Shown in pieces: positions 21,603 to 37,529 of a stretch of DNA of 37,529 bases. The first letter of the stretch is position 1. The number at the start of each line of letters is the position of its first letter. Position numbers and translations under genes: made by a program. The notes beneath the pieces were generated by a model. It saw only the letters and a program-made list of their open reading frames with translations, did not search any database and was not told the DNA's origin. The stretch is from a virus (Duplodnaviria; Heunggongvirae; Uroviricota; Caudoviricetes), in the IMG/VR virus record IMGVR_UViG_2778261576_000005, positions 1-37,529 of that record; one strand, 5' to 3'.

Positions 21603-22213
21603 ACCAGCAGCGCCGCCCGCGCCTTGTTGTATCGGACCTTACGATCCTCAATACCGTTCAGACCGCCGTTAATGATGCGCGTAACACGGTTAATATCGGC
21701 ACCGTAGATCATGCAACCTTTAGAGGTGTAGAACCATGCAGCTGAGCGCGCAGCCTGTAGTTCCTGTTCCAGTTGTTCAGGTGAAGTCACCAGATCTAAC
21801 TTCAGCGCCGCGCCACAGATGCGATAATTATGGAGGCCAGTGATTTGAATTAATCCTCTACCACGATATTTCCAGCCATCACCTAGTGCTTTGTTACCCA
21901 GTCGGTTGCTATACACCAGATTGGCAATAGCATCCTGACGAGCTGCATGTCCGGATGTTCTGCCAAGGGCATCAGCCTGCTGCTGTGTGATCCTCTTTCC
22001 GAACGTCGCCACAAGCGCAGATGGTGTGTAGTTAAGATTTTCAACTACGGCGCTAAACCCCATCGACTCATGGCCTGCCTGAGCGATAAACATTGCCTGA
22101 TCCGCTGGTGCTGTAATGCCGAATTCCTTCATCGCCGCATCAATGTGCGGAAACCAGCGCGCAGCCAGCCCGGCGCTAATACCAGCCGCCTTTTGAAATA
22201 ATTGTTGGTTCAT
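21599..22213 (-). CDS. Endolysin, glycoside hydrolase family 19-like
   Basis: 204 aa; position between holins and Rz; family assigned from recalled similarity. Confidence 0.75.
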   Translation of the reverse strand: MNQQLFQKAAGISAGLAARWFPHIDAAMKEFGITAPADQAMFIAQAGHESMGFSAVVENLNYTPSALVATFGKRITQQQADALGRTSGHAARQDAIANLVYSNRLGNKALGDGWKYRGRGLIQITGLHNYRICGAALKLDLVTSPEQLEQELQAARSAAWFYTSKGCMIYGADINRVTRIINGGLNGIEDRKVRYNKARAALLV

Positions 22214-22494
22214 TAGTGCCTCAGATGATCAACCAGACGTGCAACGTTGCCTCTGACGGCCACCAGCACGGAAAGAAAAATAGTATTCGCCACGATAATG
22301 GGCCATGAGGAATGGGGATAAATCCCACAGAGATAGGCCAATGGAACAGCACTGTATGTAACAGTAATCAGCCAGGCTAAACGTGAAACCCAAGGACGAT
22401 GCCGCGAATCACCACGACGATAAAACATCAGAGTAATAACAACACAAGCACATAACAGCGCATTTATAGTTGCTGTCGGGTCATTTAGCTCCAC
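22213..22494 (-). CDS. Holin / lysis membrane protein
   Basis: 93 aa with 2-3 hydrophobic helices directly upstream of endolysin. Confidence 0.55.
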   Translation of the reverse strand: MELNDPTATINALLCACVVITLMFYRRGDSRHRPWVSRLAWLITVTYSAVPLAYLCGIYPHSSWPIIVANTIFLSVLVAVRGNVARLVDHLRH

Positions 22495-22867
22495 CTGAAC
22501 CTCCCCGGCGCGTTATGAGCGCCACCAGCGAGCCGATATCCTGATTATTCAGGAACGTCAGGATTTTAACGGCTAAAGCAGAGACGATTACGGCACCAAT
22601 AGCATCCAGAGGTTTATCACTGTATCCGGTCAAGTTCGCCAGCTTGGAGCCAACCAACCCAGAGCAAAGGATCCCGGCAATATATGACACGATAAAATAT
22701 GCCAGTCGGCGCGATGCTCTCAGATCTGCTGCTGTTGCTATGTAGAATACAGCCCCTGCAAATGCGCCAAATACAACGCCGTAATCAGTTCCGGTCAGCA
22801 GTCCATAAACACTGGCACCCGTCAGGGCACCACCAGCCAGCCCAGTACCGGAAATCGGATCGGACAT
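22481..22867 (-). CDS. Holin-like membrane protein
   Basis: 128 aa, Gly/Ala-rich with 3-4 predicted TM helices; GAGGGGG SD. Confidence 0.55.
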   Translation of the reverse strand: MSDPISGTGLAGGALTGASVYGLLTGTDYGVVFGAFAGAVFYIATAADLRASRRLAYFIVSYIAGILCSGLVGSKLANLTGYSDKPLDAIGAVIVSALAVKILTFLNNQDIGSLVALITRRGGSGGAK

Positions 22868-22946: not shown

Positions 22947-23204
22947 TCAAACACTACCCTGTTGATGATTTCTCAGAAGCGAACTTGACTCCCAAGGGAA
23001 ACTCAACTTTCCGTTAAAACCACCAGCAGACATTCGTTCAATTTCCACAGAAATATCACTGAGCCGTTCTTCAAGCTCTGCTTTTTCTTTTACCAGACGG
23101 TTATAGCGGCTTAGATGAAGCTTTTGCTGCTCCAGCCAGTCTTCAAGCTGTTCAACAGTCATACCAGGGTTAAAAAAATATGGCTGCTGCTTTTCGCCCT
23201 GCAT
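22947..23204 (-). CDS. First late-operon gene, hypothetical (85 aa from ATG 23204)
   Basis: GGAGG SD 6 nt upstream of ATG at 23204; the longer track ORF would run through tR'. Confidence 0.45.
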   Translation of the reverse strand: MQGEKQQPYFFNPGMTVEQLEDWLEQQKLHLSRYNRLVKEKAELEERLSDISVEIERMSAGGFNGKLSFPWESSSLLRNHQQGSV

Positions 23205-23223
23205 TATTGACCTCCAGAAAAGC

Positions 23224-23247
23224 AAAAACCCCGCCGAAGCGAGGTTT
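23224..23247 (-). terminator. tR'-like intrinsic terminator in late leader
   Basis: Minus-strand CCTCGC-TTCG-GCGGGG hairpin followed by TTTTT, about 45 nt downstream of the PR' -10. Confidence 0.65.
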
Positions 23248-23294
23248 GTTATGATTTCGTTAACGGCAGACATACAAAGCCCATCGTTAGGAGA

Positions 23295-23323
23295 ATCCTA
23301 ACCATATTTTTTGAAAAATGCAA
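23295..23323 (-). promoter_or_regulatory. PR' late promoter (TTGCAT-17-TAGGAT), qut expected here
   Basis: Hexamers with 17-bp spacer about 30 bp downstream of the Q stop. Confidence 0.55.
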
Positions 23324-23354
23324 GCATCATGTCGCCATCTTCGGCGAAAATCAT

Positions 23355-24107
23355 TTATCTTGTCACTTTTCTCAATTGTGTCTCTGCATATGCTTCTTCC
23401 TGCCAGCACTTTGTAACCAGTTTATCAATGACATCTGCATATCCTTTGTACCACTGATAATCCGTCAGATCCGGTACCAGCTTCTGGACATGATGCCGCG
23501 CCAGTGTGGTTGGTAAACGGCTAAACCGGTTTCCATTGCAACGCCCACAAATCTTATAAACAGGCGCACCATGAAGCCGGGTTCTTTTTTCATCCAGTAC
23601 AATACCTTTCCCCTTGCACCCTCTGCACGCTGTGCTGACTTCTCCCTTACCATGACAATGCTGACATAGTTCCTTCACCCACTCTTCCTTGATAACAGAT
23701 TCCCCGCTTCTGGAGTGTTTCACCACTTCGCGCAATACATTATGAAATCCAGTACCAGCACAATGCTCACAGCGAGCCTTACTTGCCGCAGACCTGGAAT
23801 AATCAGCAAAGGCAAAATTCACAAGGTAAGGGATGATCTGTAACCGGGTTTCTTCACTCAATTTGTTCAATGTCGGGTTATCCAGTGCCATCGCGTAATT
23901 GAGCAGACCTTCAATCGCAAACTGAGGATCCTGAACACCAACTTTTGCCAGGAATAAGGCAAACCCAAGCGGTGCTTTCGACTGCACCATCCCCTGCGCA
24001 GCCATTACATCCGTAATTGTTAAACCACCAGAGCCTGTCGCCGGTGCGTCATCGCTCAATTTTGGAGATTTTGGGGAGTAATATTTTGGTAAGGCTTCAA
24101 GGTTCAT
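23355..24107 (-). CDS. Late antiterminator Q-like protein (QuuQ-type, 250 aa)
   Basis: Directly upstream of PR'/tR'/lysis genes; four CxxCxGxG-type motifs; DUF968 gene adjacent as in Qin prophage. Confidence 0.65.
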   Translation of the reverse strand: MNLEALPKYYSPKSPKLSDDAPATGSGGLTITDVMAAQGMVQSKAPLGFALFLAKVGVQDPQFAIEGLLNYAMALDNPTLNKLSEETRLQIIPYLVNFAFADYSRSAASKARCEHCAGTGFHNVLREVVKHSRSGESVIKEEWVKELCQHCHGKGEVSTACRGCKGKGIVLDEKRTRLHGAPVYKICGRCNGNRFSRLPTTLARHHVQKLVPDLTDYQWYKGYADVIDKLVTKCWQEEAYAETQLRKVTR

Positions 24108-24120
24108 GCTCGTTCTCCAC

Positions 24121-25116
24121 TTACGCCAGTACGCCTATTGCCAGCGCACAATCGATAAAACGAAATATCAGCTCCAGCTGGGAGCCATACTTCTCTTCAA
24201 ATGCCACGGTATCCGCATGCAGCTCGTCGTGATGCTTTCTGCACAAAGGCAACACAAAGAGGTCATGCGCTTTTGTACCCATTCCCCCCTGACCGTGGCC
24301 TATCAGGTGGTGGGGATCATCAGCAGGCTTTCCACAACATGCACACGGCTGTGTCTTAACCCAGCGTGTGTACTTTTCATTAACCCAGCGGCGACGTTTT
24401 GGGCGTAACATAAAAGACTCCGGCGACTCCGGATCCACTTTCAGCGCCAGCACCTTTTTCGCTTTATCCTGGATGATGCTGGTGGCAGGAACCGAAGGCA
24501 CAAGGTCACTTTCCCGGGTGACAGACGGCACAACAGGCTTCGGTAATCTCAGTGCCTTACGGGCTGCACTTTCCGGTAAGGCATCCGCCAGGTCATTACG
24601 AATCAGCCACCAGCACAGTTCCGGCATTGTCACAACGTGACTGTCATCAAAACCGAGATCCCGACGCACAACAGACAACACCCAGCGGGCACAGTTATCC
24701 GTTGCCATTGATTCCAGCCGTTCCGTGAACTGATCGCGCAGCTGGTTATCGCAGTGCCAGCACAGACGGATTGCGCCCGGAGCGTGTCGCATTGTTGTCA
24801 TGTTCTCGCTGTGCCAGTCGGAATGAGGCCACTGGCAGCCTTTTTCACGAAGTAACCAGCTTTCAAGACATTCCACGCCACCAGCACGACGGATCACTGC
24901 CTCATTGCGGAACACGGCCCGAACGGCAGGATCATCCGCCAGCGGTTGTGATGCCGCCGGAACGGCACCACTGGCGAAAGATGAATAACGCTCCGGCTCA
25001 GGCTCCAGCAGGACACGCCCCTGCATAAACAGGGGCATCAGCTCTGAACCTGGCCTGAACAATACGATCCCCATACGCGGGGCAATTTCAGGGGTCAGTA
25101 GTGCTCTCACGGTCAC
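24121..25116 (-). CDS. DUF968-like protein with C-terminal HNH-like Cys/His cluster
   Basis: 331 aa; CACCGKPADDPHHL...CRKHHDELH. Confidence 0.6.
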   Translation of the reverse strand: MTVRALLTPEIAPRMGIVLFRPGSELMPLFMQGRVLLEPEPERYSSFASGAVPAASQPLADDPAVRAVFRNEAVIRRAGGVECLESWLLREKGCQWPHSDWHSENMTTMRHAPGAIRLCWHCDNQLRDQFTERLESMATDNCARWVLSVVRRDLGFDDSHVVTMPELCWWLIRNDLADALPESAARKALRLPKPVVPSVTRESDLVPSVPATSIIQDKAKKVLALKVDPESPESFMLRPKRRRWVNEKYTRWVKTQPCACCGKPADDPHHLIGHGQGGMGTKAHDLFVLPLCRKHHDELHADTVAFEEKYGSQLELIFRFIDCALAIGVLA

Positions 25117-25946: not shown

Positions 25947-26336
25947 TCAGGCGGCTGCACCCGCCGTTTTCTCGTACTTACTGATAGTGATCTCGACCTT
26001 CCCTTCCGGGATAACCGGTCCCCACTCCACCAGCATTCTTTTCACCTGACTGTCGTTCTCCCACACACCCGCGTGGGTCAGGGCGTCAAACAGCGCCTTG
26101 TTATAGTTGTCCAGATCGCGGATCCGGTTATCCGGAGGAAACAACACGATCTCCACTGAAGCAGGTGCCGACGTTGGTTTTGGCAGACGACGTAACTGCT
26201 CAACTATTGCTGCACACGCCGCGCTCTGGAATTTTCGCCCCGCCGCGCTTATCAGGCTCTTACCTGCAAACGCCCCTTTGTTGGGGTGTCGCCAGTACGT
26301 GTTCACGCTGGGCGGAAAAGGCAGTATTAGCTTCAT
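25947..26336 (-). CDS. rusA: RusA Holliday junction resolvase
   Basis: 129 aa; PPSVNTYWRH, RDLDN and FDALT motifs. Confidence 0.85.
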   Translation of the reverse strand: MKLILPFPPSVNTYWRHPNKGAFAGKSLISAAGRKFQSAACAAIVEQLRRLPKPTSAPASVEIVLFPPDNRIRDLDNYNKALFDALTHAGVWENDSQVKRMLVEWGPVIPEGKVEITISKYEKTAGAAA

Positions 26337-26659
26337 ACTTTCAGGCCCCTCTCATGTAACCAGTGGGTTGCACGCAGCCTTGCGTTTTCCTCACCGGCAA
26401 GCAGTGCGCGGATAATCCCGACCGCCTCGCTGTCGTCGTCCTTCACCGCGGTATGAAGCGTTATCCCCCGGGCCACGCCACGCTTTATCGTGATGACGCC
26501 TTTTTTCTCCAGTGCGCGAAGATGCTCCACTGCTGCATTCACTGAACGATATCCCAGCATGGTTGCCACCTCCTGATTGGTTGGCGGGAAGCCACGTTCT
26601 TTCTGGTAAGAAATCAGCATATCCAGCACCTGCTGCTGGCATTGAGTTAACGTCGTCAT
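26333..26659 (-). CDS. LexA N-terminal DNA-binding domain protein lacking the S24 peptidase domain
   Basis: 108 aa; QQQVLDML...GFPPTNQEVATMLGYRSVNAAVEHLRALEKKGVI closely parallels the LexA winged HTH; no Ser-Lys dyad region. Confidence 0.65.
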   Translation of the reverse strand: MTTLTQCQQQVLDMLISYQKERGFPPTNQEVATMLGYRSVNAAVEHLRALEKKGVITIKRGVARGITLHTAVKDDDSEAVGIIRALLAGEENARLRATHWLHERGLKV

Positions 26660-28839: not shown

Positions 28840-29987
28840 TTGCGCCCCCTTACCTCTGAAGAGTTCAGCGACGAATGAATAAGACGGGCAAGAAATGCCG
28901 CATCGTTAATTCGGTCATACAGACTTACAGCCAGCGGTGATTCAGCTTTTTCCAGCATGGGATAAAGCTGCTGCAACCAGACCTGATGAATTGATGAAAT
29001 GTAGGAACAGAGAACGCTGGCGTTATGTGCAACGTCGCTCGGTACAGCGGGCTTTGAAAGCTGTTTCTCCATCTGGTTAAAGGCATTGATATATGCCTCT
29101 TTGAACTGGGCAGCACGTTTACCCGTGAAACCCATAGCAAGAAACGCAAAACCGTCGCGTGTGATTTGGTAGCAAGGAAGTTTGCGACCTGTGCAATCAG
29201 TGTAATCACTCACCGAAAAATTGCGGGCAGTGAATGATGCTGAGCATTCAAGCGTGCGGATCTTTTTCAGTACATCGTCATGACGTTTGGAGAAGAAGTT
29301 GGCAACAGCCAGGGATGAAGTAACAGCCTGACCATCAACGATGGCAATTTCAGGTTGAGTGAGGGTTGGGATCGTAGCCATGATGGCAGCCTCTTTGGTG
29401 ATTTTTAATAACTCACCACCAAGGCTTTCCACGACCTTATTGGTGGTGAGACATACAGGGGTGGAAATACCGGTCACCAAAGAACCCGGCCCAACCGAAG
29501 TTGGCCCTGCACGCCCCACCATAATTTGGGCGTAATGCTGCTCATGACACAAAAAAACCGCAAGAGCGCGGTTGTGCGCTTTGGTGAATTCCGGGTTTCC
29601 ACGCCCGGCACCCGTTTTATAAGGTGCCTGAACAGTGTAACGTCCCGGAATGGCAGAATCAATGTGCTGGTGGTCCTTCACACTCAACAAAATCACGCCT
29701 GAATTTCCACAAAGGACTAAAGCACTCATGCGGGTAGTCTTTGCGAAGATAGATAACGCGCTGTGTTTCTGGCTCCCAACGAATAACATGAACATAAAGT
29801 CCTCTTCCGTCACGAAACCAGCGGTTAAGTTCCTGCACAACTCGCCCCCCACAGTCAGGTAAAGTTCTCTGTGGTTACTTACAGCCAGGTGATTTGGTAA
29901 TCTGCATTCATGCCGTAACAACAGGTGTGCAGCGACACTGACCACCAGCTGTTGCGACAAACGGTTATTTGCCGTTAAACTGTTCAT
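28836..29987 (-). CDS. Rha-family regulatory domain protein (Rha domain from internal ATG 29381; 202-codon open N-terminal extension)
   Basis: Rha motifs in the C-terminal half; ORF start at 29987 makes an ATGA overlap with the upstream gene stop. Confidence 0.55.
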   Translation of the reverse strand: MNSLTANNRLSQQLVVSVAAHLLLRHECRLPNHLAVSNHRELYLTVGGELCRNLTAGFVTEEDFMFMLFVGSQKHSALSIFAKTTRMSALVLCGNSGVILLSVKDHQHIDSAIPGRYTVQAPYKTGAGRGNPEFTKAHNRALAVFLCHEQHYAQIMVGRAGPTSVGPGSLVTGISTPVCLTTNKVVESLGGELLKITKEAAIMATIPTLTQPEIAIVDGQAVTSSLAVANFFSKRHDDVLKKIRTLECSASFTARNFSVSDYTDCTGRKLPCYQITRDGFAFLAMGFTGKRAAQFKEAYINAFNQMEKQLSKPAVPSDVAHNASVLCSYISSIHQVWLQQLYPMLEKAESPLAVSLYDRINDAAFLARLIHSSLNSSEVRGRK

Positions 29988-37075: not shown

Positions 37076-37529
37076 AATGTTGAAGAGCAGCGAGTATCAG
37101 TTTTTTATGCCGTTTAACCATAGTTTTAGATATCTCAACTGCACATCGAACTTGTCTCATACAATGATCTGTAATGCGACCTTTTAGCACGTCACCATAT
37201 TGGATGGCTATTTTCTCTTTAATAATTTCAAGATCGAAAGCAGCATGAGCCTCAATGCAATTAACAAATGAGTCCCATTTAAGAAAATCATGGTCCTCTC
37301 TATTAATTTCGACCTGACAAGCCATAAGATCATTGTTTCTCTTAATAAATTCATTTATATCTGAATTTATTAGAAGAACTAAAAGAGGTTCACAGCAAAC
37401 AACCACCATATATTTTACTTTAGGTGGGGTCGTAAAATCACAATGAAGATACAATACATCACCGGGTGATATACCTCTTTCACGACTAAAATTAGCCTTA
37501 AAATCAGGAGGGAAACAATCACCCAGCAT
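37068..37529 (-). CDS. Hypothetical protein encoded on AT-rich DNA (153 aa), unknown function
   Basis: ORF runs to the window edge, which ends exactly on its ATG; convergent to the early-left operon. Confidence 0.5.
   Translation of the reverse strand: MLGDCFPPDFKANFSRERGISPGDVLYLHCDFTTPPKVKYMVVVCCEPLLVLLINSDINEFIKRNNDLMACQVEINREDHDFLKWDSFVNCIEAHAAFDLEIIKEKIAIQYGDVLKGRITDHCMRQVRCAVEISKTMVKRHKKLILAALQHYE

Follow-up and report, generated by a model that had tools for sequence, protein, structure and literature searches.

Background

The antitermination protein Q of phage lambda (Q-lambda) is the structural paradigm of its family. It is a short form, whereas 119 homologues aligned here and the Q protein of phi80 carry a second invariant module of four cysteines in the zinc-ribbon arm. 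Q-lambda loads at a sigma-dependent pause element, AACGAT at +1 to +6 of the late promoter PR', and its residues 1-44 refold with NusA into a torus or 'nozzle' at the RNA-exit channel (PMC9388147). Residues 110-112, 117, and 122-126 of Q-lambda touch the zinc-binding domain of the RNA polymerase beta' subunit, and the Q proteins of phages 21 and 82 form the separate Pfam families PF06530 and PF06323 (PMC9388147). Here we analyzed the Q gene and the adjoining PR'/tR' module of a prophage contained in IMG/VR record IMGVR_UViG_2778261576_000005 (Caudoviricetes; positions 1 to 37,529, hereafter the window, 37,529 nucleotides (nt) in length). The single long open reading frame (ORF) under region 23224-24107 encodes 250 amino acids (aa) on the minus strand. 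Its product, a member of the Q-lambda family, very probably antiterminates the late genes of a temperate phage of the SfV type, as part of the ordinary late switch of an E. coli prophage, and has an extra predicted zinc module that is common among its relatives.

The 250-aa protein belongs to the Q-lambda family

The 250-aa protein matched the Pfam model for antitermination protein Q (PF03589) at 179.7 bits against a cut-off of 26.7 (E 1e-53), and PHROG 127, "anti-termination protein Q-like" (phrog_127; 253 profile positions), aligned with it end to end (E 6e-109). Its best matches among solved structures were Q-lambda chains (7ubm at E 4e-38, also 4mo1 and 7ubj), and this match fell in two stretches, query residues 1-120 to lambda 1-125 and query residues 160-250 to lambda 117-207. 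The protein shared the four-helix helix-turn-helix body fold of Q-lambda. Residues 1-44, which are among the best-conserved parts of the Q family, aligned without gaps to lambda 1-44, with 22 of the 44 identical and G39 kept. At the tip of the arm, lambda has E134 and this protein R177; the lambda substitution E134K raises DNA binding affinity (PMC9388147).

These matches bore out a first-pass annotation of the sequence, which had called the protein a Q-type late regulator of 250 aa and had left its strand unstated. A Pfam scan of the protein gave PF03589 and PF00684 only, and the Q21 (PF06530), Q82 (PF06323), J-domain, and DnaJ C-terminal domain models had no match in it. Since the phage 82 and 21 proteins belong to separate families, neither of which matches, the alignment with them that had been suggested is uninformative. 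The gene sits between nin-type early genes and the lysis cassette, in the order RusA, KilA-N, DUF968, Q, two holins, GH19 endolysin, and spanin. The features of the gene and of its cysteine-containing arm are as follows.

23355..24107, minus strand: Q gene of the SfV/QuuQ/ydfT type, whose 250-aa product is a Q-lambda-family antiterminator
23976..24107, minus strand: N-terminal segment of Q, residues 1-44, homologous to the torus or 'nozzle' segment of Q-lambda (lambda alignment with G39 conserved; function from PMC9388147)
23748-23771, minus strand: motif 1, C113EHCAGTG120 (ORF translation)
23643-23666, minus strand: motif 2, C148QHCHGKG155 (ORF translation)
23604-23627, minus strand: motif 3, C161RGCKGKG168 (ORF translation)
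23526-23549, minus strand: motif 4, C187GRCNGNR194 (ORF translation)
23628..23771, minus strand: predicted extra Zn(Cys)4 ribbon, residues 113-160 (motif 1, 27-aa beta-hairpin, motif 2, 5-aa linker), absent from Q-lambda (gap in the lambda alignment)
23526..23627, minus strand: motif 3, an 18-aa helix-containing arm, and motif 4, residues 161-194, the equivalent of the Q-lambda zinc-ribbon arm with C118, C121, C144, and C147 (ungapped HMMER alignment, query 160-250 to lambda 117-207)

Eight invariant cysteines and an insertion in the arm

All four CxxCxGxG motifs listed by the first-pass annotation were found in the translation; the pattern is exact in three of them, and motif 4 ends in R instead of G (CxxCxGxR). 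C161, C164, C187, and C190 aligned without gaps to lambda C118, C121, C144, and C147, with the same 26-residue spacing, and are predicted zinc ligands. In a MAFFT alignment of 50%-identity representatives, the first lambda knuckle (RCRDC) fell on motif 3 (ACRGC here; CRC, and thus CxC, in many homologues) and the second on motif 4, with the 18-residue linker length kept. Compared to Q-lambda, the arm therefore carries an insertion of about 48 residues, made up of motif 1, the linker, motif 2, and five further residues. The eight cysteines were invariant both in 32 representatives (28-60% identity) and in 119 homologues (36-98% identity), so the four motifs cannot be put down to chance.

The spacing between the motifs was kept to different degrees. 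Motifs 2 and 3 are separated by 13 residues in nearly all homologues (11 in a few), and motifs 3 and 4 by 25 or 26 in nearly all, as in lambda. The distance from motif 1 to motif 2 ranges from 35 to 60 across the homologues and is 14 in some representatives. Residues 121-147, between these two motifs, are the most variable in sequence and hold 44 of the 61 insertion columns of the alignment. AlphaFold2 (AF2) models of the full-length protein and of the arm alone agreed with each other. The stretch from motif 1 to motif 2 was predicted to form two strands of 11 residues each (121-131 and 137-147), with further short strands beside each knuckle and a lambda-like strand-helix-strand arrangement between motifs 3 and 4.

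The late promoter, pause element, and terminator

The cis elements of a late switch were found between Q and the next ORF.

23323-23318, minus strand: PR' -35 hexamer, TTGCAT (positional homology to lambda and phi80; matches the hexamer annotated for phi80 pR')
23317-23301, minus strand: PR' spacer of 17 nt, the presumed Q-binding element (by position and the annotation of the phi80 record)
23300-23295, minus strand: PR' -10 hexamer, TAGGAT (positional homology to lambda and phi80)
23295..23323, minus strand: late promoter PR' as a whole (spacing as in lambda and phi80)
23280..23288, minus strand: probable start (+1 = 23288) and sigma-dependent pause element AACGATGGG, AACGAT then GGG (lambda PR' has the same nonamer, equally far from its -10)
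23218..23247, minus strand: intrinsic terminator tR', about +42 to +71, with a 9-bp stem, a UUCG loop, and a U-tract (fold and equivalent position in relatives)

In the window the gap between the -10 and the pause element is 6 nt, TCTCCT. When aligned, the elements were in register with those of SfV, phi80, and lambda.

This window: -35 TTGCAT, spacer 17 nt, -10 TAGGAT, gap 6 nt, pause element AACGAT+GGG
SfV: -35 TTGCAT, spacer 17 nt, -10 TAAGAT, gap 6 nt, pause element AACGAT+GGG
phi80: -35 TTGCAT, spacer 17 nt, -10 TAGATT, gap 7 nt, pause element AACGCT+GGG
lambda: -35 TTGACT, spacer 17 nt, -10 TAAATT, gap 6 nt, pause element AACGAT+GGG

The identification of this putative PR' rests on its positional homology to the lambda and phi80 promoters, not on consensus strength. 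The Q-binding element (QBE; 13 bp in lambda) was placed here by position and by the annotation of the phi80 record. The terminator hairpin, AAACCTCGC-TTCG-GCGGGGTTT, has its stem at 23247-23226 and a T-tract running to about 23218, so that coordinate 23224, at which the first-pass annotation began the region, lies inside the T-tract. The hairpin folded at -13.1 kcal/mol (z -4.1), a value that none of 200 shuffled sequences matched. Terminators were present at the equivalent position in SfV (annotated as rho-independent), mEp460, the Stx2k phage, 2H10, and phi80 (annotated), with differing sequences. Homology to most phages with this Q ends at about 23262, just before the terminator, and each phage has its own terminator there; judging from the alignments, this is a typical mosaic joint.

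The 196 nt between the end of Q and the next ORF were the same as in the SKA5 record except for one base upstream of the -35 hexamer, and the segment was nearly identical in Salmonella phage 118970_sal3. We therefore regard the PR'/tR' module as intact, as had been proposed, and it is positionally homologous to PR' of lambda and phi80. A search of Rfam gave no match over the PR' leader. An inverted repeat separates the Q stop codon (TAA) from the -35, TCGCC-GAAGAT-GGCGA (23331-23346, minus strand), and lambda has one at the same place, TTGCCA-CGGA-TGGCAA (lambda locus about 818-835). Folding of the repeat in the window was not significant (z about -1.3), so the repeat could have arisen by chance or could mark a small conserved site.

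Relatives and distribution of the long form

The 1.4 kb around Q were 100% identical to E. coli ETEC1703, and of 5426 complete E. coli genomes, 3187 had partial matches to this 1.4-kb query; the Prokaryotic Genome Annotation Pipeline (PGAP) often names the gene ydfT in them. The protein was 99.2-99.6% identical to the annotated Q of SfV, mEp460, SKA5, PhiR47_1, and fifteen Stx2c-converting phages, and 98.8% identical to that of phiSTEC1575-Stx2k and Ayreon. Profile searches returned 250-280-aa proteins with four motifs across Enterobacterales (Providencia, Xenorhabdus, Yersinia, Proteus, Morganella, Photorhabdus, and Erwinia), as well as E. coli clusters of 273-aa four-motif proteins with 3739 and 4648 member sequences. 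Phage records with the long form included ST104 gene 23, mEp237, SF6, and Stx2a-converting phages. Judged from these sequences, the long form is common to all 119 aligned homologues and phi80 Q and is not peculiar to this prophage. Homologues in sequenced phages do carry the motifs, namely those of SfV, mEp460, 2H10, and the Stx2c and Stx2k phages (97-99% identity) and phi80 Q; absence of the motifs from functional homologues had been named as the finding that would speak against the first-pass annotation.

This Q is therefore an already known, annotated, and very common allele with the usual long-form arm of its family, and it carries little weight as a discovery. Its DnaJ-type motifs are flagged in domain databases (precomputed Pfam tables list PF00684 for most homologues), and a phage-genome paper noted in passing the DnaJ CXXCXGXG motifs of a protein matching Q-lambda (PMC5313236). 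A literature search on QuuQ/ydfT returned nothing relevant. Stx2c- and Stx2k-converting phages use the same Q/PR' allele for their late transcription, and the antitermination efficiency of this Q may for that reason bear on Shiga-toxin output.

Alternative explanations

Several points weigh against reading the locus as a lambda-type late switch whose Q carries two zinc ribbons in series. The PR' hexamers match the consensus at three of six (-35) and four of six (-10) positions, the -10 has G at its third position (TAGGAT) where SfV and mEp460 have A (TAAGAT), and a generic promoter scan did not call PR', because its -35 matches the consensus at only half of the positions. The promoter described as well formed by the first-pass annotation was thus not so on consensus, and holds by homology; the terminator, described in the same words, was confirmed by its fold. 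The mechanism given below was taken from the Q-lambda structures (PMC9388147) by homology. As for the arm, the cysteine pairing is a prediction. When the module of motifs 1 and 2 was compared with that of motifs 3 and 4, hhalign aligned only 16 columns, pairing motif 1 with motif 4 (74% probability), and found no duplication of a whole module. Motifs 2 and 3, 13 residues apart, also resemble the single zinc site of anti-TRAP and align to it by hidden Markov model. The last point would suit a genuine DnaJ-type cysteine-rich domain inserted into Q, in which motifs 1 and 4 hold one zinc and motifs 2 and 3 the other, perhaps with DnaJ-like protein or peptide binding. We consider such a domain unlikely. 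The Pfam model DnaJ_CXXCXGXG (PF00684) covered residues 148-193 at 31.2 bits, below its cut-off of 32.7, and the strand layout of the AF2 models, the spacing pattern, and the lambda homology of motifs 3 and 4 make it more likely that the cysteines form two ribbons in series (1 with 2, 3 with 4), unlike the nested 1 with 4 and 2 with 3 of DnaJ. The likeness to DnaJ that had been pointed out thus holds at the level of the motif and weakly at the level of the fold, and the nested two-zinc topology probably does not apply.

The activity of the switch and its range of targets were weighed in the same way. A decayed Q, like quuQ/ydfT of the defective Qin prophage of K-12, with a late switch that no longer works, would fit the name ydfT that PGAP gives to many matching E. 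coli genes, the partial matches in complete genomes, many of which are necessarily cryptic prophages, the several early-left genes annotated as pseudogenes in the closest genome (ETEC1703), and the G in the -10. However, the ORF is full length and differs by one or two substitutions from the Q of SKA5, SfV, and mEp460, with all cysteines intact, PR'/tR' is identical to the SKA5 record, and no lysis, head, or tail gene is incomplete, these genes having 97-98% identity to SfII, SfI, and SKA5, which makes decay highly improbable. It is just as improbable that this Q acts as a general and toxic antiterminator on host transcription units beyond its own PR', as is reported of AntQ of Gifsy-1. Overexpression of AntQ, which is Q-like, is toxic to Salmonella as well as to prophage-free E. 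coli, a toxicity that Rho or RNase H relieves (PMC4825925), and the window carries isrK-like and C4-like RNA genes. However, AntQ may fall outside this Q subfamily, its toxicity is an over-expression phenotype, and isrK, which adjoins antQ in Gifsy-1, is separated from Q by about 5.4 kb in the window and stands near cro. Moreover, a cognate PR' module directly follows the gene, as in operon-specific Qs.

Proposed mechanism and the predicted second zinc module

From the homology to Q-lambda we infer that this Q binds zinc through the paired motifs and antiterminates at its own late promoter. RNA polymerase would start at the adjacent PR', at about 23288, and would pause when sigma70 binds once more, at +1 to +6, to AACGAT, which resembles a -10. 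The helix-turn-helix body and the zinc-ribbon arm of Q would bind the DNA site between the -35 and the -10, with the zinc ribbon touching the beta' zinc-binding domain and the tip of the arm touching the repositioned region 4 of sigma. Together with NusA, residues 1-44 of Q would then fold into the torus, narrow the RNA-exit channel, and block formation of the terminator hairpin, and the polymerase would read past the +42 to +71 terminator into an 85-aa ORF, the holin, endolysin, and spanin genes, and the structural genes. Within the arm, motifs 1 and 2, as a second Zn(Cys)4 module, would clamp the long hypervariable beta-hairpin, and the lambda-type ribbon of motifs 3 and 4 would follow in series.

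No description of a role for this second module was found in the searchable literature. The module is inserted directly before the knuckle whose lambda neighbours touch the beta' zinc-binding domain, and a contact with RNA polymerase, sigma, or DNA is conceivable. Promoter geometry was near-identical for short-form (lambda) and long-form (phi80 and SfV) Qs, phi80 having one extra base after the -10, which argues that the second module leaves the basic loading geometry unchanged. We regard it as rather doubtful that the second ribbon and its hairpin constitute a distinct functional module that adds or retunes a contact with RNA polymerase, sigma region 4, NusA, or upstream DNA. If they did, long-form Qs (SfV, phi80, and the Q alleles of many Stx phages) would load unlike the lambda paradigm, and variation of the hairpin would set partner or promoter specificity.

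The prophage and neighbouring genes

The structural module of the prophage is that of an SfV/SfII-type myovirus (97-98% identity), and the window holds cro and a LexA-type repressor gene, genes for replication and lysis, Q, and all of the structural genes, with close relatives among sequenced phages. The window showed no integrase. In ETEC1703, where the prophage lies in dusA, the integrase adjoins dusA on the far side of the tail-fibre end, and several of the accessory early genes are annotated as pseudogenes. An inducible prophage, which the first-pass annotation had argued from the late switch, does not follow from these data, as the switch alone is insufficient. An intact late switch is compatible with inducibility, being necessary and not sufficient for it. 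A 105-nt 5' fragment of dusA was found at the prophage edge (right end of the window, about 37300-37430; locus L001 34519-34623), and ETEC1703 has an intact dusA and a tyrosine integrase at the opposite end, so the prophage is one that integrates at dusA. The left end of the window differs from ETEC1703 in the tail-fibre region, with a 642-aa ORF at 671-2599.

The first gene 3' of tR' was the following.

22947..23204, minus strand: gene for an 85-aa protein with a strong ribosome-binding site, GGAGG, at 23215-23211 (annotated as hypothetical; phrog_3501, of unknown function, E 1e-54)

This ORF starts 14 nt past the T-tract of tR', between Q and the holins, and had no Pfam or NCBIfam match. It is also present in SKA5 and Salmonella phage 118970_sal3; mEp460, 2H10, and Stx phages have other cargo at its position, including stx2 further downstream. 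The only promoter-like match of the generic scan (22965-22937) lay at its end. Two tandem holin genes follow on the minus strand (22213-22867, beginning at 22867; Phage_holin_8 of 128 aa and Phage_holin_3_7 of 93 aa, with a 14-nt overlap), and then a GH19 (chitinase-class) endolysin and a spanin.

Directly upstream of Q, across a 13-nt gap, lies a DUF968 gene (24121-25116, minus strand, 331 aa), whose protein matched Pfam PF06147 (E 1e-80) and, at threshold, HNHc_6; its C-terminal region is HNH-like with several CxxC/HH motifs. The order KilA-N, DUF968, Q is kept in SfV, mEp460, and the Stx2k phage. A 108-aa 'LexA family transcriptional regulator' (26333-26659, minus strand), apparently a DNA-binding domain only, stands beside rusA in the nin-like region; the LexA-type repressor of the prophage (217 aa), near cro, is a different protein. 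Just downstream of cro, within a YmfL-family coding sequence annotated by PGAP in the identical ETEC1703 prophage, were matches at the Rfam gathering level to the C4 antisense RNA (29439-29526, 81 bits) and the Hfq-binding small RNA isrK (29551-29627, 68 bits), both on the minus strand. IsrK of Gifsy-1 acts on an antirepressor and through it controls AntQ, the Q-like protein (PMC4825925).

Comparison with known systems

The closest described proteins, SfV Q (NP_599078) and the Q of mEp460, SKA5, Ayreon, 2H10, and the Stx2c and Stx2k phages, together with the ydfT entries of PGAP, have the same 250-aa length and 96.8-99.6% identity. Phages of the SfV type share with the window the gene order KilA-N, DUF968/HNH, Q, as well as PR', the first approximately 26 nt of the transcript, and a short terminator at the same distance. 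They differ in the -10 (TAAGAT or TAAAAT instead of TAGGAT), in the sequence of the terminator, and in the downstream cargo (methylase, csp genes, or stx2 instead of the 85-aa ORF). SKA5 and Salmonella phage 118970_sal3 have the whole Q/terminator segment in common with the window.

The Q protein of phi80 (gp17, 269 aa) is also a long-form member of the Q-lambda family, with motifs CDCCDGGG, CKPCNGKG, CRCHGKG, and CDRCGGRG, and has reportedly been studied biochemically by Guo and Roberts (2004). Its identity to the window protein is roughly 40%, as estimated from relatives of similar length. The phi80 pR' has the same -35, TTGCAT, a 17-nt spacer with an annotated Q site, AACGCTGGG after the -10, and an annotated terminator at about +46. 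It differs in that AACGCTGGG lies one base further from the -10 and in the sequence of the spacer (QBE), and phi80 Q has a longer hairpin between motifs 1 and 2 and a CxC instead of a CxxC in motif 3.

Compared to the cysteine-rich domain of DnaJ (PF00684; 1EXK) and B. subtilis anti-TRAP, this Q scores below the Pfam cut-off and its zinc pairing is likely in tandem, not nested. It is without the J-domain or chaperone context of DnaJ, and its module lies inside an antiterminator that would bind DNA and RNA polymerase.

Q-lambda (207 aa; PDB 4MO1 and 7UBJ-7UBN, deposited as 6VEU-6VEW in the preprint) belongs to the same Pfam family, with 42% identity over the aligned columns, and has in common with the window Q the N-terminal torus segment, the helix-turn-helix four-helix body, and one zinc-ribbon arm. 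Lambda PR' has the same architecture, with AACGATGGG at +1 to +9; its tR' lies at about +194, a position that we take from lambda 6S RNA, versus +42 here. Q-lambda differs above all in the arm, where it is without an equivalent of residues 113-160, the predicted second zinc module and its hairpin.
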